Below are positions 23,151-44,357 of a stretch of DNA of 64,000 bases, piece after piece. Where the stretch lies: assembly GCA_964465685.1 (NCBI GenBank), contig CAYXKK010000001.1:229997-293996 (forward strand), given 5' to 3'. The position numbers and the translations under genes are program-made. The stretch comes from an uncultured Melioribacter sp. Lineage in GTDB: Bacteria; Bacteroidota; Ignavibacteria; Kapaibacteriales; Kapaibacteriaceae. The notes below the pieces were generated by a model. The model did no database searches and was not told where the DNA came from. It was given only the letters and a program-made list of their open reading frames with translations. Positions within the stretch are counted from its first letter, which is position 1. Every line of letters begins with the position of its first letter.

Positions 23151-24758
23151 ATGCAACGTTTTCAATGTTCCCATGCTCCACAATGCCGCGCCTCAGCACT
23201 AGGTGTCATTACCTTACTGCTGTTGTGCGTCCTTCCCCTGTCCGCGCAACAGCCTGACTCCAGCGAGCGGGTGCGCAGGGCGCGCGAGTTATTCATCAAC
23301 GGTACAACCCTGCAGATACAGGGAAACCGACATGCAGAGGCGATTCTCGAGTTTCAACAAGCGCTCCGCTATGACTCGTCCTCTGTTACACTCGCAGCTA
23401 TTGCTCGCAGCTACTTCGAGCTGCGCAAACTTGATCTCGCACTAGAGTTCGCAGATGCGGCAGTGAAGCGCGATTCAACCTCTCGAGACATTTGGGAACT
23501 AATCGCTGAGATCGAGGTCCTCCGCGGACACTACGACGAAGGTATCGCAGCGTACGAACGCCTGCTCACGCTCAACCCATCTCGTCGCCAGCTTTACACA
23601 CTCGGTCGTCTGTACGAGCCACGTAACGCTGCAAAGGCAATCGAGATGTTCGAACGTCTCTGCGCCACGCAGCCTGATCCAACACTCCTTTTGCGGCTGG
23701 CAGATCTCTATGAACGGCGCCGTGATACAAAGGGCATCATTCGATCCCTTGAACGCGCACGCCAGAGTGATCCATATGACGCGCAAATTGCAGCACGTTC
23801 GTGTGAGGTGTATGTGCGGGAAGCAATGTTCGATGAACTCAAAGCTGTACTTGTGCAATGGAAGCGCAACGATCCTGAAATCGAACGCAGCGCTCGAATA
23901 TGGGGCGTCACATTTACAAGTCTGCTTGAGGACTCGCTCGTGTTGGCCATTCATCGGAACGAGGTGATTCCGTTGCTGGACGACGCACTCATCACCTTCC
24001 CAACAACATGGCCAGTAATGGCGTTGGCCGGAACGGTCAGCGTTGCTATCGAGGACACGGTACGCTCCCGACTCTTGTTTGATCAGACAGTGGAAGCCTC
24101 ACAGTATCGTGTTGAAAGTTATCTGGAGATTGGCCGCATTTACTTGCTGCGGAACTATCCAAACCAAGCATACGAGTACCTCTCCGAAGCACTTCGTCGA
24201 TACCCATCCGATGCTCGATGTGCATACATGCTCGGTAGCGCGAGTTTGGAACTCGACCGTGACGATGATGCAATTGCGTACTACACGGCTGCCGTTGAAC
24301 TCGATCCACGTATGGTTGACGCATGGGTGCAATTGGGAATCCTGTACGATCAGCGTGGAAATGCCGACAGTTCGGATATGCACTATCGACGAGCACTCCG
24401 CCTGGAGCCTGATAACGCTCTTGCACTCAACAACCTTGCGTATTCACTCTCTGTGCGTGGCTTGCAGTTGGACCAAGCCCGCATGATGGCATGGCGTGCA
24501 GTTCAGGCCGAGCCTCAGAGCGCCGCGTATGCAGATACGTACGCTTGGGTGCTGTTCCAACTCGGTGAATACCGCGAAGCTCGCTTCTATATCGAGCGTG
24601 CTATTTCCCTTGGTGGTAATGCAACGCACTACGAACACCTTGGCGACATTCTATGGGCACTGCAGGAGTATCCTGCTGCCCTGTCGGCATGGCGACAGGC
24701 ACTCACGCGTGATCCGTCACGCACACGCTTACTCGACAAGATTGATCAGCAGAAATAG
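23151..24758 (+). CDS. TPR-repeat secreted protein
   Basis: ATG at 23151 gives MQRFQCSHAPQCRASALGVITLLLLCVLPLSAQQ, a signal peptide, followed by multiple TPR-like repeats. The ORF track start (23049) lies upstream of the rpmB terminator and is unlikely. Confidence 0.65.
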   Translation: MQRFQCSHAPQCRASALGVITLLLLCVLPLSAQQPDSSERVRRARELFINGTTLQIQGNRHAEAILEFQQALRYDSSSVTLAAIARSYFELRKLDLALEFADAAVKRDSTSRDIWELIAEIEVLRGHYDEGIAAYERLLTLNPSRRQLYTLGRLYEPRNAAKAIEMFERLCATQPDPTLLLRLADLYERRRDTKGIIRSLERARQSDPYDAQIAARSCEVYVREAMFDELKAVLVQWKRNDPEIERSARIWGVTFTSLLEDSLVLAIHRNEVIPLLDDALITFPTTWPVMALAGTVSVAIEDTVRSRLLFDQTVEASQYRVESYLEIGRIYLLRNYPNQAYEYLSEALRRYPSDARCAYMLGSASLELDRDDDAIAYYTAAVELDPRMVDAWVQLGILYDQRGNADSSDMHYRRALRLEPDNALALNNLAYSLSVRGLQLDQARMMAWRAVQAEPQSAAYADTYAWVLFQLGEYREARFYIERAISLGGNATHYEHLGDILWALQEYPAALSAWRQALTRDPSRTRLLDKIDQQK

Positions 24759-35135: not shown

Positions 35136-35879
35136 TCACTTTCCTGCCATTGGACGCAGTCCAATAAATGCCAACATTCTGCCTGCTCGAATACTGTCCC
35201 GACGGTGTGAATGCCACTGTGTGTCAGTAATCGTGCACGATCGATCGCACACAATCGATGATGGACGTATTCCAGCCGCACGGAGCTGAGCCGAGATTGC
35301 CGCGTGGTTGTCAAACGTCCATTGTGACGTCGAATCTAGAACTGGAGTGCAATAGTCAGGGAGAACCGATGCAACGTCTTCTCGTACCTCGTACACATCA
35401 CCCGAGGCACACGGTGAGAGCCATGCATGCACATCCGACGCCTGCGTTCCATAGGCAGTGTGCATGGTTGTGAGAACAGCACCTACGATGTTTCCCGCCG
35501 TCCCCCTCCAACCGGAGTGGACCGCCGCAACCGCCCGGTGTACGGGATCGACGAGGAGCACACCACAGCAGTCAGCAAGCTTCACGCCTAGCACCCAACG
35601 CTCGCAATTGGTCACTAGCGCGTCGGCGTGGATAGTTACATCGGGTCGCTCTTCATCAACCACGATAACAGAAGTTCCATGCACTTGCGTCACCGTCACA
35701 ATGTCTTCACGACGGATCGCAAGGTGCTTGGCAAGCTCTGCATAGGAGCGTTCAACATCCTCAGCTGACGATGACGGAGTGTGTCCGAACGAATACCCGG
35801 GCCATGGCAACACTGACGTGTCGACCATCGTCACGCCACTGCGCACGTCAGTTCGGTCGATTGCTGTTCGAATCTGCAT
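35136..35879 (-). CDS. pgeF: Peptidoglycan editing factor PgeF (YfiH/DUF152, laccase-domain protein)
   Basis: AAVHSGWRGTAGNIVGAV fits the DUF152 consensus. The start may be the internal Met at 35828, which would remove the overlap with comEC. Confidence 0.75.
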   Translation of the reverse strand: MQIRTAIDRTDVRSGVTMVDTSVLPWPGYSFGHTPSSSAEDVERSYAELAKHLAIRREDIVTVTQVHGTSVIVVDEERPDVTIHADALVTNCERWVLGVKLADCCGVLLVDPVHRAVAAVHSGWRGTAGNIVGAVLTTMHTAYGTQASDVHAWLSPCASGDVYEVREDVASVLPDYCTPVLDSTSQWTFDNHAAISAQLRAAGIRPSSIVCDRSCTITDTQWHSHRRDSIRAGRMLAFIGLRPMAGK

Positions 35880-37683
35880 GCGTCGAACCTACGACAACAT
35901 GCTGAATTCGCGCAGCCATCCGTCTCCCCCATCGTCCAACGCCACCAGCGATCACTGCACCCTGCCGGTAGCGTGACCATTGTATCACGCGCGTGTCGAG
36001 TGGATCGGTCCCACTCCCAATTATGAGTATGCGTGTGGTGTCAGTCGACGACACGCCAACAATGCAGCGTGTACGCTGTCGATACACCCACAGTTGCTCC
36101 GTGTGTGATGCAGGAAACAGATGCACCGATGCAGTGAGCGCAAGCGCGACACACCACCGAAGGACAGCGCCGACAGAGGTTTGTGCGATAAGCGGCCACC
36201 ACCAAACGCATGTGCAGAGCGATGCAATCAGCCAGAGGTTGTCCTCGCAACGCACAAGATTCTCGAGGTACACGAAGCATTGGAGAATGAAGTCCGTGAT
36301 CACGAGTAGTAGATGCATAACCTGTGCAACAGGTTCTGCCATACCGACCACGGAAGCGAGCACAAACAGTGGTGCAACCACGAACACCAGACTCAGCAGT
36401 GGTACGACGATGCCGTTTGCGATCACGGAGAATACCGCTACCTGTTCGAAGGTGATCAGCGACGGCAGCACAATAGCGGTCGTTGCTGCAACACTTACAC
36501 TGACTACAGATGCACACGCAGCAATGCTTCGCGATGACGACGGTACAAGCATCATTGCGTAGCGCTTCCAGAGAGGAGCAAGAACAAGGATCCCCGCAAC
36601 AGCAGACACAGATAGAATCGTTGAAGCAGTGTCGAGCGACCATGGATCGGCGATCGTTAGGACCAGCACGCTACCTGCGAGGAGATTCAATCCATCAACA
36701 TCCCATTCGCGCCAGCGAGCAACTATGAGTGCTATGCCCATGACCGCTGCGCGCAGAGCCGGGATTTCGGCACCTGTGAGAAACACGTATGCGACAATCA
36801 GTGTGGCGCACGCGAACACCAGTGCACTTCCTCTCCATCGGCTTAGCACGAGCAGAATGAGCGTGAACATCAATCCCACATGTGAGCCGCTCACCGACAA
36901 CATATGAGCAGTGCCGGTACGCTGATACATAGTCATCTGCTCTCGGTCGATGCCCGATCGATCACCAAGTGCAAGAGCAAAAACAACCCCTGCATCAGCA
37001 TCAGACAGGTCCCGCGTAACAAGGTCACGCGTCCAGCTACGTATCTGTGATCGGACTCGTTGATGGAACGGTGGATCGCATACGAGATGCGAGCTGGCCG
37101 ATTCTGCTATGAATGAAACGCCTACCTGATGTGCAATGTCGCGCTCATCAACTTCATCAGGCAACCCAGGTGCGGACGGACGACGAATACGTGCGTAGAC
37201 GATGCGCTGCTCACCTGTCGCAATCGCTTCCGATGGATGTCGTTCAGTGCACATCGACGTTGTGATACAGCACGGCAAGTCACGTGCGTCGGTGTGTCCC
37301 TCAATGATGTAGGTCACCCGTGACGGCGATTGCCGCAGAACACGGGTTACCGTACCCTCGATACGGCACGGGATCGACTGTCGGAGGTATGAGTGTTGGG
37401 GGGCGATGCGCGGAACTGCAAGTGTAACCGCACAAACAGCGATAAGCACACATGAGCAGCAGAGACTTGCCAAGCAGCGACCCTTCAGTAACAGTGTGAC
37501 AGCCGCCGCAAGCAGCAAACCCATCCCCGGGATATACAGCTCAGGGCCTAGGGACACGTCTCGCAGCATCAGGACACTGCCACAGACTAGCACGCATGGG
37601 ACGATAAGGGGGCGTCTACGCATACCTATCAGAGCCCATTCATCGCTGGGCTGTGACAGGTCTGTAGGTGTTGAAAACTTCAC
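35848..37683 (-). CDS. comEC: DNA internalization-related competence protein ComEC/Rec2 (membrane channel domain, no C-terminal metallo-beta-lactamase domain evident)
   Basis: Polytopic membrane protein with the competence domain (MFTLILLVLSRWRGS...IPALRAAVMG). Confidence 0.75.
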   Translation of the reverse strand: MKFSTPTDLSQPSDEWALIGMRRRPLIVPCVLVCGSVLMLRDVSLGPELYIPGMGLLLAAAVTLLLKGRCLASLCCSCVLIAVCAVTLAVPRIAPQHSYLRQSIPCRIEGTVTRVLRQSPSRVTYIIEGHTDARDLPCCITTSMCTERHPSEAIATGEQRIVYARIRRPSAPGLPDEVDERDIAHQVGVSFIAESASSHLVCDPPFHQRVRSQIRSWTRDLVTRDLSDADAGVVFALALGDRSGIDREQMTMYQRTGTAHMLSVSGSHVGLMFTLILLVLSRWRGSALVFACATLIVAYVFLTGAEIPALRAAVMGIALIVARWREWDVDGLNLLAGSVLVLTIADPWSLDTASTILSVSAVAGILVLAPLWKRYAMMLVPSSSRSIAACASVVSVSVAATTAIVLPSLITFEQVAVFSVIANGIVVPLLSLVFVVAPLFVLASVVGMAEPVAQVMHLLLVITDFILQCFVYLENLVRCEDNLWLIASLCTCVWWWPLIAQTSVGAVLRWCVALALTASVHLFPASHTEQLWVYRQRTRCIVGVSSTDTTRILIIGSGTDPLDTRVIQWSRYRQGAVIAGGVGRWGRRMAARIQHVVVGSTHADSNSNRPN

Positions 37684-37797: not shown

Positions 37798-38856
37798 ATG
37801 AGTCAGGAAGCAAAGGCACCGAAAGAACCAGCAGCAGCAGCGAAGGTAAATGAAGCCAAGGTGAAGGCAGCACAACTCGCGATGGAGCAGATAGAAAAGG
37901 CCTTTGGTAAGGGCTCGATCATGCGCCTGAGCGATGAGCAATCCGTTGATATCGAAGCGATCTCGACTGGATGTCTCTCACTTGACGCTGCCATCGGCAT
38001 CGGCGGTGTACCTCGTGGCCGTATCGTTGAAATCTACGGACCTGAATCATCTGGTAAGACGACGGTGTGTTTGCAGGTGATTGCCGAGGCTCAAAAGGCT
38101 GGTGGTCTTGCAGCATTTGTCGACACAGAGCACGCCCTCGACGTTAAGTATGCACAACGTTTGGGTGTTGATCTCAACAACCTCCTTCTTTCGCAGCCAG
38201 AGTTCGGTGAGCAAGCCCTCGAAATCGTTGAAACACTCGTTCGTTCAGGAGCTATTGACGTTGTGATCGTCGACTCCGTTGCTGCGCTCACACCACGTGT
38301 TGAGATTGAGGGCGACATGGGCGACGCACAGATGGGCTCGCAAGCACGTCTGATGAGCCAGGCAATGCGCAAGCTCAATGCAGCGATCGGACGGTCAAAC
38401 ACAACGGTGATCTTCACGAACCAGCTTCGTTCGAAGATCGGTGTCATGTACGGTAATCCGGAGACGACAACTGGCGGTAACGCGCTCAAGTACTATGCTT
38501 CGGTACGGATTGACGTTCGTCGTAAGGACGTCATCAAGGATGGACAGGATATCGTCGGTAATCGCGTGCGCGCCAAAGTTGTCAAGAACAAGGTTGCTCC
38601 TCCGTTCCGTGAAGCTGAATTCGACATCATGTACAACGAAGGCATTTCACGCCTTGGTGATATGATCGACGTCGCGGTAGAATCGGGCATCATCACGAAG
38701 TCTGGATCATGGTTCTCGTTCAATGATGAACGCGTGCAGGGTCGCGACGGCATGCGGAAGCTACTCACTGAGAATGCGCCACTCTATGCTGCATTGGATC
38801 AGGCTGTGCGCGATGCACTCCATCTGCCAACACCGCAGGCATCATCGAAGAAGTAA
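37798..38856 (+). CDS. recA: Recombinase RecA
   Basis: GPESSGKTT Walker A, and otherwise the canonical RecA sequence. Confidence 0.97.
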
Positions 38857-38859
38857 CCC

Positions 38860-41004
38860 ATGGGCATCGTTACGGCAGTTCGGAGAAACGTGAAAAACCC
38901 CTCACGATGCTCTGTATTTGTCGACGACGAGTTTCTTGCAGCGTGTCCTATTGATGTAGCGTTGTCACTCGGTATCCGGAAGGGTATCGAGTTGACAGCC
39001 GACCTTGAGCATCAACTTCGACGCGAAGACAAGCGCATTGTCATGCGTCAGAAAGCATACCGCTTTGCGACGTATAAACCTCGTACCGAGCATCAGGTGC
39101 GTGCATTTCTTGCCACAAAGGAACTCACGCCCGAGGAAGTGGACGATGTGATGTCGTGGATTGTGGAGTTTCGCCTGATCGATGATGCGGCGTATGTTGA
39201 GCGATTCCTTTCCGCAGCATTTGAGCGCAAGCCACTATCGCGTCTCATGGCCCGTCGAACACTGCTGAAAAAAGGCATCCCCGATGCACTTCTTGCACCG
39301 GCACTTGAGCGCTGGTACTCGCAGGAGGCAACTGAAGACGTAGCATACCGTGCAGCTGTCAAGAAACTGCGGATGCTGACTACTGCACCTCCATCAGAGA
39401 AAGAGTCGAAACTGATCAGGTTCCTTCAATACCGCGCCTATCCTTGGTCAACTGTCAAGCAGATTGTCGAGCGGCTCAAGTCCGAAGATCTGCTCGCCTT
39501 GTTCATCGTGTTGGTATGCTGTTCACTACCTGCCGTGGCACAGCAGGATACATGCGGACGCATGCGCCTGCCTGATGCAATCAACAGCTTTCAGCCGACG
39601 ACGATGCCCGTGCTTGACGCGTTCGGCACGTTGTATGTCGACCGCAAGTTGCATCCTGAAAATCGTGACGGCGGTGTCCGCGATCCCGATGATGTGTGGG
39701 TTGCACAGCGTCGTGATGGTCAGACATTTTCGGAACTCGCCCACTCACCGATCACCACGGATATTCAACCAGATGTCATCTTCTGGGTGTCGGCAGATGG
39801 ACTCGATGCGCTGGCGGTCGGACCGTATGCACCAGCAGGCAGCGTGTCACGGTCGCTCGTCCTCCTCGCACGCAAGACTCCACAGTCTCGCTTTGATAGC
39901 GTGCACATCATCCGGATTCCGGATGTCGTCGACCTCGGTCGGAACTTCTATGCGTCGATGACCGAGGATCGATCAACGATTATTCTCGCCCTCGAACGTG
40001 CTGAGGGACGTGGAGGTCTCGATCTCTATGTCTCGCGTTTCTGCGAAGGTGCGTGGTCCCGACCATTGCACCTGGGTCCAACTGTGAATACCCCTGCCTT
40101 CGATGGAGCACCATGGCTGAGTGCGGATGGACGCACCCTCTACTTCGCATCAAGTGGACGTGAAGACAGGTTGGGCAAGGCAGACTTGTATGTGACTCGC
40201 CGCTTGGACTCAACGTGGACAACATGGTCTGCTCCACTGAATCTCGGTCCTTGCGTGAACTCAATTGAAGATGAAACTGCTATTTCACTCCTCCCTACCG
40301 GCGACTCAGCACTCATCCACTCGTGGGATGCCGAATCTGGTCGGCCTGGTATTTACCTTGTCTCCCTACCCGCGTCGGTGCGTCCGGAGCCAGCGATGAC
40401 CGTCTCGTGTCGCGTCGTCGATGCCATTACCCGGGTACCCGTCCCGAATGCACGTCTTGACGTGCAGACGCACCCATGCCATGCATGGACGGTGCGCTAT
40501 GATTCTGCGCACGCCACGTTCACGACCGTTCTTCCCCAACGATGCACTGCAACGCTACGTGCTTCGGCTGCATTCATGACGTCAAGCTCGAGTGTGCTTC
40601 GATTGCAGACACTGGATTCAACATCAACCACATCGCTTACGATTTCGCTGTTCAACCAAGCGGAGCCAATCGCATCGCTGTACTTTGATCGTGGAAGTTC
40701 GGTTCCCTCGCAGGCAGATCGCGACACGTTACAACGCATCGTCAACCTGGTGCGCGGACGAGGTGTGGGACTTCACGCCATTGGATACACCGACCGCATA
40801 GGATCCGATGCAGCAAACCGCGAGCTCTCCCGTCAGCGCGCATCAGTAGTAGCAGACGCGCTCGTATCGCTCGGTCTTGATGCATCGTTGATTGAATCCG
40901 TCGGACGTGGTGTTGCACATGGCAGTTCGAAGCTTCGCAACGAAGAACACCCGCAGAGCCGCCGTGTCGACGTTTACGTCAGGACGCAATCACGGGGTGA
41001 GTAA
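38860..41004 (+). CDS. recX: RecX (N-terminal ~215 aa) fused in frame to a PorE-like periplasmic module (PD40/TolB-like beta-propeller repeats, CarboxypepD_reg-like segment and C-terminal OmpA domain)
   Basis: The N-terminal part matches RecX (KLIRFLQYRAYPWSTVKQIV resembles the E. coli RecX C-terminus). At about aa 215 there is a hydrophobic signal/anchor-like stretch, LLALFIVLVCCSLPAVAQQ. It is followed by PD40-like repeats (LYFAS...ADLYV) and an OmpA C-terminal domain (GYTDRIGSDAANRELSRQRA). There is no stop codon between the parts. Confidence 0.7.
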   Translation: MGIVTAVRRNVKNPSRCSVFVDDEFLAACPIDVALSLGIRKGIELTADLEHQLRREDKRIVMRQKAYRFATYKPRTEHQVRAFLATKELTPEEVDDVMSWIVEFRLIDDAAYVERFLSAAFERKPLSRLMARRTLLKKGIPDALLAPALERWYSQEATEDVAYRAAVKKLRMLTTAPPSEKESKLIRFLQYRAYPWSTVKQIVERLKSEDLLALFIVLVCCSLPAVAQQDTCGRMRLPDAINSFQPTTMPVLDAFGTLYVDRKLHPENRDGGVRDPDDVWVAQRRDGQTFSELAHSPITTDIQPDVIFWVSADGLDALAVGPYAPAGSVSRSLVLLARKTPQSRFDSVHIIRIPDVVDLGRNFYASMTEDRSTIILALERAEGRGGLDLYVSRFCEGAWSRPLHLGPTVNTPAFDGAPWLSADGRTLYFASSGREDRLGKADLYVTRRLDSTWTTWSAPLNLGPCVNSIEDETAISLLPTGDSALIHSWDAESGRPGIYLVSLPASVRPEPAMTVSCRVVDAITRVPVPNARLDVQTHPCHAWTVRYDSAHATFTTVLPQRCTATLRASAAFMTSSSSVLRLQTLDSTSTTSLTISLFNQAEPIASLYFDRGSSVPSQADRDTLQRIVNLVRGRGVGLHAIGYTDRIGSDAANRELSRQRASVVADALVSLGLDASLIESVGRGVAHGSSKLRNEEHPQSRRVDVYVRTQSRGE

Positions 41005-41397
41005 GCTCACCAGCGTGCACGAACACCCGGTCGTGGCCCTGCTCTCCGTGATCAGAACATCCCACGAGTCGTGTGCATGCACGTAGAGAGCCACCTCGTT
41101 TTCACTGTGACGTTCGCAGGCTTCGTCGTGATAGGGCGACCGCCACATGAACTCTTCTGCCGCAATGAGAACGGCCCGCTCAAGATGATCAGAGCCACGG
41201 ACAATGACGATCACTTCGTCTTGACCCGATGGGATATGATCTAGGCGAACGACAATGCGTTGCCATCGATCCCGCTCCTCTAACCACAGATCTCGAACAA
41301 ACGCAGATGCGTCAGCGGCTGGGACAGCTGCATGGACAGCCGGGACCGCCATAGATGTGAGTACCATAAACACCTCCAAAAAAAAAGCGATATACAA
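40990..41397 (-). CDS. Hypothetical small protein (possible secreted; start probably at the internal Met, 41367)
   Basis: ORF between the recX fusion and tRNA-Gly. The alternative start gives MVLTSMAVPAVHAAV. No recognisable domain. Confidence 0.35.
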   Translation of the reverse strand: MYIAFFLEVFMVLTSMAVPAVHAAVPAADASAFVRDLWLEERDRWQRIVVRLDHIPSGQDEVIVIVRGSDHLERAVLIAAEEFMWRSPYHDEACERHSENEVALYVHAHDSWDVLITESRATTGCSCTLVSLLTP

Positions 41398-41456
41398 TCA
41401 ATAACCACCATCTAATGAATCACCAACCACACTATCTCGTACGATCAATACCAGCG

Positions 41457-41529
<73 letters not shown>

Positions 41530-41548
41530 GGACAGGAGAATACATATG

Positions 41549-41913
41549 TGGAGATGCCGGGAGTCGAACCCGGGTCCGAAGTGGAAAATCCGAAGCATGC
41601 CACGTGTGTCTTCGATCTATAGGTTCTCGTCGCCTGGGGCACCGATCGACAGGTCCCACACGACCAGTATCAGTGTTGTCTTACGCTTTGCCCTGCTACA
41701 CAGCTACGCGCCAGCCTGATTCAAGCGTCACCACGGATTGAGAGCAACAGGCGGCTCTCATCGTGATGGCATGGCGTCCTAAGTCTTAGGCGGCCATGCG
41801 ATAACCGAAGTTATCTGCATGTATTGTTCGCCGGTTGTATTAACGAGCTCCACCAGCGTAGCTCGACACGCATCTTCGTGACTGTCTCACCCCGTCGAAA
41901 CCGGTACATCCCC
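41549..41913 (-). ncRNA. ssrA: tmRNA (SsrA)
   Basis: The 5' end is GGGGATGTACCGGTTTCGACGGGG and the 3' end is ...CCGGGTTCGACTCCCGGCATCTCCA. These form a tRNA-Ala-like acceptor stem with a G3-U70 pair, and the T-arm is GGGTTCGACTCCC. There is an internal ORF GCA GAT AAC TTC GGT TAT CGC ATG GCC GCC TAA, giving a predicted tag (A)ADNFGYRMAA. Confidence 0.85.
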
Positions 41914-42011: not shown

Positions 42012-42929
42012 CTACACGAGCGCAGGATCTTTTGCTGCCAGACGTTCCACAAACTCCTTGACTTCTTCCATGTACCACTGCGGAGTGCTCGTCGCACCGG
42101 AGATTCCAATACGCGCAGCACCCTGAATCCATACGGGATCCAGATCGTCGGTGGTTTCCATGAAGTACGTGCGCGGATTCGATGCACGAGCTACATCGTA
42201 CAACACTTTGCCATTCGAAGAGGCTTTACCTGCCACAAAAAGCAGCACGTCGTTCTCGGCGGCAAACTTTGCGAGCTGGTTTTCGCGACCACTAACCTGA
42301 CCGCAGATCGTATCCTTTGCGTGAAACTCAGTGGCAATTTCTTCCATCGTGTCAACGATGAGTTCAGCTACTCGCCCCTTGAGTGCATCTCGTATCAGAA
42401 GAAATGTCGGACGGTCCATGGTTGTCTGTGAAAACAACACAGTCTTCTTCGTCATGTCTACAAGGTCAAGTGCTTCTTCTACCGACTTCACCACGATGCA
42501 CTGGTCGCGCACGACACCTCGCACGCCCAATACTTCTGCGTGATCCTTCTTGCCGAAGATGACCACTTGGTACCCTTGATCCCAGAACTTGCGAACGCGC
42601 TCCTGCAACTTCGTTACAACCGGACACGTCGCATCGACAATCTCGATGCCATGCTCCCAGGCTGCGCGGTAGGTTGAAGGTGGCTCGCCGTGGGCACGAA
42701 TGATCACCTTTGCACCAGAGTTCGCAAGACGCGAGAAGTCATCAACCGTGATCGTTTCGAGCCCCTTATCCTCGAGACGCTGGATCTCTTTGGGGTTGTG
42801 AATGATATGCCCGAGCACATAGACATTGCGCCCGCTGCGCGTGGCTGCAAGCTGATCTTCAGCGATCTGCACCGTGCGAACCACACCCCAGCAGAATCCG
42901 CTAAATCGATCGATGGAGACAGTGACCAT
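42012..42929 (-). CDS. ispH: 4-hydroxy-3-methylbut-2-enyl diphosphate reductase
   Basis: The MVTVSIDRFSGFCWGVVRTVQIA... N-terminus and the conserved Cys residues (C13, ...ATCPVV...) match LytB/IspH. Confidence 0.9.
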   Translation of the reverse strand: MVTVSIDRFSGFCWGVVRTVQIAEDQLAATRSGRNVYVLGHIIHNPKEIQRLEDKGLETITVDDFSRLANSGAKVIIRAHGEPPSTYRAAWEHGIEIVDATCPVVTKLQERVRKFWDQGYQVVIFGKKDHAEVLGVRGVVRDQCIVVKSVEEALDLVDMTKKTVLFSQTTMDRPTFLLIRDALKGRVAELIVDTMEEIATEFHAKDTICGQVSGRENQLAKFAAENDVLLFVAGKASSNGKVLYDVARASNPRTYFMETTDDLDPVWIQGAARIGISGATSTPQWYMEEVKEFVERLAAKDPALV

Positions 42930-42946: not shown

Positions 42947-43651
42947 TTAAAAGTTGGTGAACGCGGAGACGATCGAATAGGTCTTTTGGTATCCATCAAC
43001 CAACTCCAGAATGCTCTGCACTTGGTCGTCGATCGTACAATGCGTTGTGTCAATCTCGACTGCACCATCTGGTTTGATGAGGGGGCTTACTTCCCGCTCA
43101 CTATCAAGCTTATCGCGCTCGATGATGTGGCGACGCACAGTGTCAATATCCAAATGCTCACCACGCTGCTCTGCTTCGAGCATGCGACGACGAACACGTT
43201 CGTTGACGTCGGCCACGAGGAATACTTTGACCTCGGCGTGTGGAAACACAACGCTTCCGATATCCCGTCCATCCATTACCACGCCGCCATTCAGTCCGAG
43301 CATACGTTGGCGCTGAACAAGTGCTCGACGTACACGTGGGAATACACTGACTTGGCTTACATGACTTGTCACGGAGGCTTCGCGGATTGCACGCGTCACG
43401 TCTTCTCCGTCGAGAAACACGCGCTGTCCATCAGCCGATGGCTCCAGACGTATTTCGAGGCGTTCAGCAAGCTCACCTAGCGCTGCGTCGTCCATTGCCA
43501 CTCCGCCACGAAGGGCAGCAAACGTTACTGCGCGATACATCGCTCCCGTGTCGATATACACGTACCCAAGGTGCTCGGCAACCTTGCGTGCGGTGGTGCT
43601 TTTTCCCGCACCTGCAGGACCATCAATTGCGATCGTAAGACGTTGGCTCAT
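42947..43651 (-). CDS. cmk: Cytidylate kinase
   Basis: IAIDGPAGAGKST P-loop, and YIDTGAMYR. The start is at MSQRLTIAIDGP (43651); the ORF track extends to 43702. Confidence 0.88.
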   Translation of the reverse strand: MSQRLTIAIDGPAGAGKSTTARKVAEHLGYVYIDTGAMYRAVTFAALRGGVAMDDAALGELAERLEIRLEPSADGQRVFLDGEDVTRAIREASVTSHVSQVSVFPRVRRALVQRQRMLGLNGGVVMDGRDIGSVVFPHAEVKVFLVADVNERVRRRMLEAEQRGEHLDIDTVRRHIIERDKLDSEREVSPLIKPDGAVEIDTTHCTIDDQVQSILELVDGYQKTYSIVSAFTNF

Positions 43652-43655
43652 ACGC

Positions 43656-44357
43656 TCAAAGATACCCCAAAACTTGCCGTAATCGGGACGCTGTCGCTGC
43701 ACCCGGAGCGAGTGTGTCGATCACCAGCGTAGCTCCGGCAGCCTGTAGTTCTTCAGTTGTGTGCACGCCCGTGGTGACTGCGACGCAGGCAATATCATGC
43801 GCTTTCGCGCATGTAACGTCACCAATAGCGTCGCCAATGATCAGCGATTCGGACGCCAGGAAGCTCTGTCCTGTTGCGCTCGTAACTGCTGCGAGGGCGC
43901 GAGGAGGTAGGTCGCGTCGATCTGCGTGATCATCCCCAAACGCACCGGCAACGAAGACGTCTGGCACGCCTGCCATGGCAAGCTTGTGTTGCGCAATGCC
44001 GTCAATGTTCCCCGTGAGCAATCCGCAGACAGTTCCGTGGTCGAGGAGTGCATGCAGCACCTCAACAGCACCATCCAGTCTGTGTGCAGTCTCAGGAGTG
44101 ATGAGCTCACGAGCGTGGACTGCCATGTCGGCAGCAAACTCTCTCCACACATCGTCGACCGACGCTCTGGCGACCTGTACCGCGTCGGCAATGTCGTACA
44201 CAAGTCCCCTGTCGGTACGACCCGCAAAGGACATGGTCGCAACGACCGACTGAACGTCTACGCTAAAGATTGCGCGAAACGAGCGAACGTACATTTCTCG
44301 TCCAATTCCCTGCTCTACGCGCAGCAAGGTTCCATCGATATCCCAGAGTGCAAGCAT
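43656..44357 (-). CDS. HAD-superfamily hydrolase (subfamily IA-like)
   Basis: WDIDGTLL motif I. Downstream Thr/Ser and Lys...DD motifs are present. About 233 aa. Confidence 0.65.
   Translation of the reverse strand: MLALWDIDGTLLRVEQGIGREMYVRSFRAIFSVDVQSVVATMSFAGRTDRGLVYDIADAVQVARASVDDVWREFAADMAVHARELITPETAHRLDGAVEVLHALLDHGTVCGLLTGNIDGIAQHKLAMAGVPDVFVAGAFGDDHADRRDLPPRALAAVTSATGQSFLASESLIIGDAIGDVTCAKAHDIACVAVTTGVHTTEELQAAGATLVIDTLAPGAATASRLRQVLGYL

Follow-up and report, generated by a model that had tools for sequence, protein, structure and literature searches.

A recurrent RecX–OmpA fusion with an internal, cleavable-looking Sec signal peptide in uncultured Kapaibacteria and their relatives

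The window analysed here, a 64,000-nucleotide stretch of DNA from an uncultured Melioribacter sp. (GTDB family Kapaibacteriaceae; contig CAYXKK010000001.1), contains an open reading frame (ORF) for a protein of 714 residues, 38860..41004 on the + strand, that joins two proteins of seemingly incompatible kinds. Its first part is RecX, ordinarily a small, soluble, cytoplasmic regulator that acts as a brake on RecA; its second part is an exported-type protein consisting of a beta-propeller, a beta-sandwich and an OmpA-like domain. The fusion is natural and evolutionarily maintained, and it is found in little-studied uncultured Kapaibacteria and their relatives. At the junction between the two parts lies what appears to be a Sec signal peptide, formerly N-terminal and now internal. 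On balance, the sequences lead us to favour a precursor whose C-terminal part would be exported and probably cut free by signal peptidase I, leaving RecX at the inner face of the membrane.

The fused ORF begins 3 nt after the stop codon of recA (37798..38856, +), itself an intact ORF with Pfam matches to RecA (452 bits) and RecA_C, and no stop codon in the window sequence separates the RecX part from the part downstream. We delimited the parts with Pfam and NCBIfam models, Foldseek comparisons and an AlphaFold model built on a 76-sequence alignment, with a mean pLDDT of 89.8. The RecX domain occupies residues 1–205 (38860..39474, +) and comprises an N-terminal beta-hairpin region followed by three 3-helix repeats. 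In Pfam the repeats match RecX_HTH1, HTH2 and HTH3 over residues 63–202; HTH1 scores 35.4 bits, above the cutoff of 26, while HTH2 and HTH3, at 25.0 bits each, fall just under it, and the corresponding repeats of homologs exceed the cutoff. NCBIfam RecX models cover residues 1–210, although the best of them, NF010733, reaches only 84 bits against an equivalog cutoff of 240. By Foldseek, the N-terminal part superposes on RecX crystal structures (3d5l, TMt 0.73; 3e3v, TMt 0.81). Judged by its sequence, this part is a divergent RecX, like the RecX of the lineage generally. A preliminary description of this DNA had reported a complete RecX running without a stop into exported-type domains, and this is what a single 714-residue ORF with Pfam and NCBIfam RecX matches bears out.

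Beyond the RecX fold (residues 1–195 in the AlphaFold model), a single helix, residues 196–220, carries the last RecX helix into a hydrophobic core. This core belongs to the signal/anchor-like stretch noticed earlier, which is directly visible in the translated sequence as L211–A227 (LLALFIVLVCCSLPAVA; 39490..39540, +) and is identified as signal-peptide-like by its homology to N-terminal signal peptides. With Q228 and Q229 included it spans nt 39490–39546, and the chain continues as QQDTC. A predicted signal peptidase I site with a small-Gln motif, A227/Q228 (a slash marks the predicted cut here and below), lies between nt 39540 and 39541 on the + strand. The AlphaFold model has low pLDDT only at residues 223–230, around this putative cut site, and at the last three residues.

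The exported-type part opens with a beta-propeller of PD40/TolB-like blades, residues 232–505 (39553..40374, +), recognised by a Pfam PD40 match at 409–445 and by AlphaFold strands from about 257 to 502. It starts at a conserved cysteine, Cys232, and a motif, C-x-R-x-RLP..N.FQPT, that form invariant columns in the family alignment. A beta-sandwich follows at residues 512–597 (40393..40650, +), delimited by AlphaFold strands. The reading of this segment as carboxypeptidase-regulatory-like holds in part: the modelled sandwich and the matches of homologs to PF13620/PF13715 at this position agree with it, but the window protein itself has no significant Pfam match there. The last domain, residues 605–708 in the model (40672..40983, +), is an OmpA-like peptidoglycan-binding domain, with a Pfam OmpA match at 608–688 (44.8 bits; cutoff 27.2) and a Foldseek TMt of about 0.8 to Pal/OmpA C-domains. 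It retains the canonical GYTD..G....N..LS..RA motif; the window's version, GYTDRIGSDAANRELSRQRA, aligns with YiaD, Rv0899 and OmpA, and residues D645 and R660 are invariant across 76 sequences. The PD40/TolB-like repeats and the OmpA C-terminal domain named in the preliminary description were thereby both recovered. A scan for promoters and terminators returned 1 promoter-like site, where 2.7 were expected, and 6 terminator-like sites, where 3.2 ± 1.9 were expected.

The same architecture recurs well beyond the window. Two further contigs, an independent one from Logan and one of 546 kb from NCBI, encode the exact 714-residue protein, and the 90% cluster to which it belongs has 11 members from independent assemblies (Logan, ENA, JGI, NCBI), ten of them 714 residues long and one 704. 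When 5.8 billion proteins were searched, about 67 clusters matched at 99–100% query cover and 39–95% identity, with lengths of 690–741 residues and with both RecX and OmpA/PD40 domains; in all, fused members make up about 76 protein clusters at 39–95% identity. Comparison of orthologous loci, which the preliminary description had proposed, was made with one genome per GTDB species. It showed the uninterrupted RecX–OmpA frame, without a stop, in 20 species (loci L006–L024 and L027). In 19 of these species recA lies directly upstream, and the twentieth locus, L024, is truncated by the end of its contig. L006 is 96% identical to the window. The genomes come from unrelated studies, and almost all are labelled as metagenome-assembled genomes (MAGs) of Kapaibacterium, Kapaibacteriota or Ignavibacteria.

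The linker that connects the end of RecX to the conserved cysteine comes in 19 different lengths between 28 and 61 residues, and in every case the frame is kept. The ratio of nonsynonymous to synonymous substitution rates (dN/dS) is 0.02–0.17 for RecX, 0.04–0.09 for the propeller and 0.13–0.37 for the OmpA domain; by this sequence measure both halves are under purifying selection. The junction itself has a mean identity of only 24%. In public databases the fused proteins are labelled 'RecX family transcriptional regulator', 'OmpA family protein' or 'hypothetical protein', and each such label conceals half of the molecule.

Two further observations concern these loci. Compared with locus L007 (4001–6160), the window shows mosaic divergence: recA is 93% and RecX 95.6% identical (dS 0.81), the propeller is 69% identical, and the sandwich and OmpA parts are 39–44% identical (dS about 2). 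This suggests either that recombination homogenises the 5′ part of the locus or that the exported 3′ part evolves much faster. Separately, L006, L010, L017 and L023 carry a Kapaibacteria-type locus in MAGs labelled Melioribacter, Hyphomicrobiales, Patescibacteria or Chitinophaga pinensis, which are probably mislabelled bins.

The origin of the junction can be read from relatives in which the two genes are separate. A RecX profile run over all fetched loci classed 22 as fused, 9 as split but adjacent (L002–L004 represent one species) and 3 as unlinked (L029, L087 and L090). In Ca. Kapaibacterium thiocyanatum (L002–L004), recX ends in a stop codon and the PD40/OmpA gene comes next. Elsewhere they lie in different frames with an overlap of 20 nt (L005), overlap by 4 nt (L091), are separated by gaps of 8 nt (L086) or 80 nt (L088), or are adjacent or overlapping (L025 and L030). 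Two of these loci, L025 and L091, have no recA nearby, so the pairing of recX with the PD40/OmpA gene is independent of recA. Among 55 Bacteroidia PorE-like loci, none had recX within about 4 kb.

In the split orthologs the second gene opens with a canonical signal peptide. That of L005, MLVKRSDLIVAAVLCMLPAVLHT/QPNTCKRT, aligns residue for residue with ERLKSEDLLALFIVLVCCSLPAVA/QQDTCGRM in the window, from which we conclude that the hydrophobic stretch of the fused protein was once the signal peptide at the N-terminus of the downstream gene's product and is now read in frame with recX. A small indel would have joined the two frames, placing the signal peptide inside the chain at residues 211–227. 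The recX genes of unfused relatives end in charged tails; their products must be soluble, and tethering is therefore not an ancestral requirement.

Fusion and separation do not sort cleanly. Protein P0196 is a fusion of 716 residues whose RecX part shares 27% identity with that of the window, and its nearest relatives, of about 500 residues, are all unfused. Likewise, in a neighbour-joining tree, unrooted because the Bacteroidia outgroups lack the anchoring motif and read only for the grouping of the two states, split forms are not grouped apart from fused ones. On these sequence comparisons the fusion arose more than once, that is, at least twice. Such mixed and repeated states are to be expected if the chain is processed, because processing would make the fused and split arrangements nearly equivalent.

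Does the internal segment still behave as a signal peptide? Its layout is that of the usual n-, h- and c-regions: K207, the core LLALFIVLVCC, then SLP and AVA/QQ, to give LPAVA/QQ. The core is about 11 residues long and is followed by a helix-breaking proline, Pro224, and AVA. We scored the cleavage site across the family by a motif anchored on the conserved cysteine, with shuffle controls, because the longest uncharged run ends early, the c-regions containing H, N and D. Among the 76 fused members, a small residue followed by glutamine stands 2–8 residues before the cysteine in 72 (shuffle mean 40.5, maximum 52), and the strict motif [AGSTCV]-x-[AGS]/Q in 52 (shuffle mean 14, maximum 27).

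A glutamine at this position is what the Bacteroidetes Q-rule for signal peptidase I substrates describes, and Ignavibacterium album, whose Q-value is 77%, also obeys the rule (PMC5837995). The window supplies its own evidence. Four other predicted secreted proteins, encoded at 23151, 26347, 30616 and 47858, all on the + strand, have N-terminal signal peptides that end in LPLSA/QQ, LPSYA/QW, STVMA/QQ and TDADA/QK; as all four end in small-x-Ala/Gln, we take the organism to follow the rule. The junction has the features of such a site, with small residues at −3 and −1 and glutamine at +1, but its signal peptide starts at residue 211 rather than at the N-terminus. That a cleavage-type site has been kept while the junction as a whole diverged to 24% identity argues that cleavage still occurs, and from the sequence pattern we hold cleavage by signal peptidase I at the junction to be probable. 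The objection in the preliminary description that a recombination regulator and an envelope protein make no functional sense as one polypeptide can accordingly be softened: since a Sec signal peptide has been retained at the junction and looks cleavable, the chain need not remain in one piece.

We propose the following course of events. RecX, translated first, would fold in the cytoplasm, as its modelled fold allows. The hydrophobic segment, on emerging from the ribosome, would target the nascent chain to the Sec translocon with its N-terminus in and its C-terminus out, and the C-terminal 487 residues would be translocated to the periplasm. Signal peptidase I would then cut at A227/Q228, giving an envelope protein with an N-terminal glutamine in keeping with the Q-rule. 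The freed propeller–sandwich–OmpA protein, with its conserved motif, would bind peptidoglycan. A hydrophobic tail of 17 residues would hold RecX to the inner face of the membrane, where it would either stay or be freed on removal of the tail. By analogy with a spent signal peptide, such removal would fall to a site-2 protease or a signal peptide peptidase. Purifying selection on RecX (the dN/dS range given above) supports a retained function, putatively the binding of RecA and the inhibition of RecA filament extension.

Several observations weigh against this proposal. Fused members have a somewhat longer uncharged stretch (median 17, range 10–33) than split ones (median 14, range 10–15), so some of them could be uncleaved signal anchors. 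The small-Gln site is absent from 4 of the 76 fused members, and the conservation of Gln228 might have some cause besides cleavage. There is, moreover, a short class of proteins, 430–437 residues long, consisting of RecX, a signal-like segment (ATA/Q, ASA/Q or AKG/Q) and a reduced C-terminal part with no propeller. It is represented by L089 (5001–6293), an orthologous locus with recA upstream, and by the proteins P0088, P0125, P0126 and P0128–P0130. Their OmpA domain looks degenerate: of the three scanned with Pfam, P0125 gave a weak, below-threshold match, and P0128 and P0130 gave none. The short class suggests that the tethering of RecX may be under selection, a reading that it fits better than neutral co-production.

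In the strongest alternative, a doubtful but serious one, the protein is not cut. The segment would then be a permanent signal anchor and the protein a bitopic inner-membrane protein, with RecX covalently joined to a peptidoglycan-bound periplasmic domain, a topology that resembles those of MotB, TssL and the anti-sigma factor RseA. RecX would be pinned at an envelope site, sequestered from the nucleoid or freed only by regulated proteolysis. The longer uncharged stretches of fused members, up to 33 residues, would suit an anchor, as would the AlphaFold helix that runs unbroken from RecX into the segment and the retention in the short class of RecX, the segment and a reduced periplasmic part. 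The gene pair persists even in L025 and L091, which lack an adjacent recA, a hint that the two genes are linked in function and not only by co-transcription. Yet a pure anchor needs no small-Gln site, and 95% of fused members have kept one across a poorly conserved junction; a short core with Pro224 and AVA behind it is what cleavable signal peptides typically have; and the RecX of unfused relatives, with its charged tail, is soluble.

A bolder version, which we put forward as speculation and consider rather unlikely, is that RecX is a membrane-tethered anti-RecA factor whose availability is set by the envelope through its peptidoglycan-binding partner. Were that so, the protein might be an RseA-like device, or a YneA/ChiZ-like checkpoint in reverse, coupling the state of the cell wall to recombination and the DNA-damage response. 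It is hinted at by the ancient pairing of recX with the PD40/OmpA gene, which persists without recA, by the repeated fusions and by the short class that keeps the tether.

Less likely still is that two proteins arise from the one ORF because ribosomes also start at an internal non-ATG codon, yielding an envelope protein with its own short signal peptide and reducing the fusion to a tolerated by-product. The TTG and GTG codons to which the preliminary description pointed do exist in the window (TTG at L214, GTG at V217 and TTG at L218; 39499–39513), and a Bacteroidota-type lineage may not rely on Shine–Dalgarno sequences. But we looked for a conserved internal start in the 20 fused species and rejected it: no ATG, GTG or TTG is conserved at the junction, either at the hydrophobic segment or before it. 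Locus L009 has none of these codons in the 45 positions before the conserved cysteine, and L007, L013, L017 and L019 have no start codon that would leave a usable signal peptide. In these five loci, for want of a usable start, the periplasmic part can be made and exported only within a RecX-led chain. In the window, a start at L214 would leave a 14-residue signal peptide without a positively charged n-region. The fusion would be produced in any case, since recX has no stop and every ribosome that translates it makes the fused protein.

The least credible account is the artefact or pseudogene that the preliminary description had allowed for, in which the recX stop codon was lost here through an indel of assembly or sequencing or through a recent mutation that inactivates the gene; a one-nucleotide indel would indeed turn an overlapping pair such as that of L005 into a fusion, and a related 90% cluster includes a few shorter fragments from long contigs, but we rejected this account because the fused frame is shared by 20 species-level genomes from unrelated studies, the window's own cluster is almost uniform in length across independent assemblies, all nineteen linker lengths preserve the frame and dN/dS is far under 1 in both halves. 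Among the options first offered, the evidence favours a true fusion in which RecX faces the cytoplasm and a membrane segment follows it.

The surroundings of the fused gene in the window are as follows. Upstream, and divergent from recA, lies a comEC-like competence gene (35848..37683, −; Pfam Competence, 146 bits, and DUF4131), which stands outside the fusion. The same arrangement of comEC and recA is found in L002 and L003 (Ca. K. thiocyanatum) and in L089, and it may not be chance alone that places a DNA-uptake channel gene beside recA and a RecX that is possibly bound to the membrane. At its 3′ end the fused gene is overlapped by 15 nt by a convergent 135-residue ORF (40990–41397, −), which has no Pfam match; on the Logan contig L001 a similar gene of 125 residues is called at this place. 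Just downstream are a tRNA-Gly (CCC; 41456–41529, −) and a transfer-messenger RNA gene (tmRNA; 41548–41913, −) with the tag peptide ADNFGYRMAA. The housekeeping genes ispH/lytB (42012–42929, −) and cytidylate kinase (42947–43702, −) follow, and in L089, too, ispH (LYTB) lies near the fusion.

Across a whole lineage, then, RecX is predicted to be made solely at the head of a precursor for Sec export, and every RecX molecule would be born at the membrane. If the chain is cleaved, nature would offer here a clean case of a bacterial polyprotein whose signal peptide is internal, and cleavage would explain how two seemingly incompatible genes could fuse repeatedly without harm. If it is not, the protein would bring a RecA regulator under spatial or envelope control by a new route. 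In both cases, the pairing of recX with a PD40/OmpA gene, with its translationally coupled overlaps, at least two fusions and its persistence without recA, is a lead towards a link between DNA repair and the cell wall.

Set beside known systems, the N-terminal part has what characterises RecX: all three helical repeats, a fold that superposes on the crystal structures and a gene directly downstream of recA, a position that recX has in many bacteria. Unlike in those proteins, no stop follows RecX and the chain runs on into an exported protein. Other RecX representatives, among the best 150 of a whole-library search, are standalone proteins of 64–246 residues, mostly 205–235; this range leaves aside the fused family itself, along with a few proteins that have additional RecX repeats or N-terminal extensions that were not scanned. 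In E. coli an attenuating terminator lies between recA and recX, for which the 3-nt spacer of the window leaves no room.

The envelope part invites comparison with PorE (PG1058) of the T9SS (type IX secretion system), which has a TPR-WD40-CRD-OmpA_C-like architecture (PMC12773672, PMC7192894), and with CHU_0125, described as a Pal homolog (PMC5891637). Like PorE, the window protein has a propeller, a carboxypeptidase-regulatory-like sandwich and an OmpA_C-like domain in the same order. Unlike PorE, it has no TPR in either the Pfam matches or the AlphaFold model. Nor did inspection by eye, with no predictor run, reveal before Cys232 the lipobox that marks an outer-membrane-associated lipoprotein such as PorE: the window has QQDT and its relatives ITT, DTS, LTS and similar. 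The lipobox consensus is L-[AS]-[GA]-C, and here the conserved cysteine falls 4–5 residues after a site of the signal peptidase I type. The protein scores 55.6 bits with the NCBIfam model T9SS_PorE, against a cutoff of 600, and 75.8 bits with that for CHU_0125, against 620; by Foldseek, the PorE C-domain (6top, TMt 0.61) is no better a match than generic Pal/OmpA domains. Of the suggestion that this is the domain set of PorE without its TPR, then, the architectural likeness survives and the membership does not: on these cutoffs, the missing TPR and the lack of a lipobox by eye, we rejected identity with PorE or CHU_0125.

The junction ends in small-x-small/Gln, as do the signal peptides of Bacteroidetes Q-rule substrates (PMC5837995), although here the signal peptide is internal and lies behind a folded cytoplasmic domain of 210 residues. 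Among the papers covered by a literature search, none describes a RecX–OmpA fusion or a membrane-anchored RecX; the parts are known, and their arrangement, a recurrent fusion that makes a signal peptide internal, is undescribed. Two examples stand near to such a chain. The FbcH cytochrome b/c1 polyprotein of Bradyrhizobium has an internal signal peptide, and its parts may be separated by signal peptidase; the anti-sigma factor RseA is a regulator with its N-terminus in and its C-terminus out that may undergo staged proteolysis. Neither involves a recombination regulator, and for the fused RecX family processing is a prediction. What all three share is a cytoplasm-facing N-terminal part and a periplasmic C-terminal part, made as one chain and joined by one hydrophobic segment.

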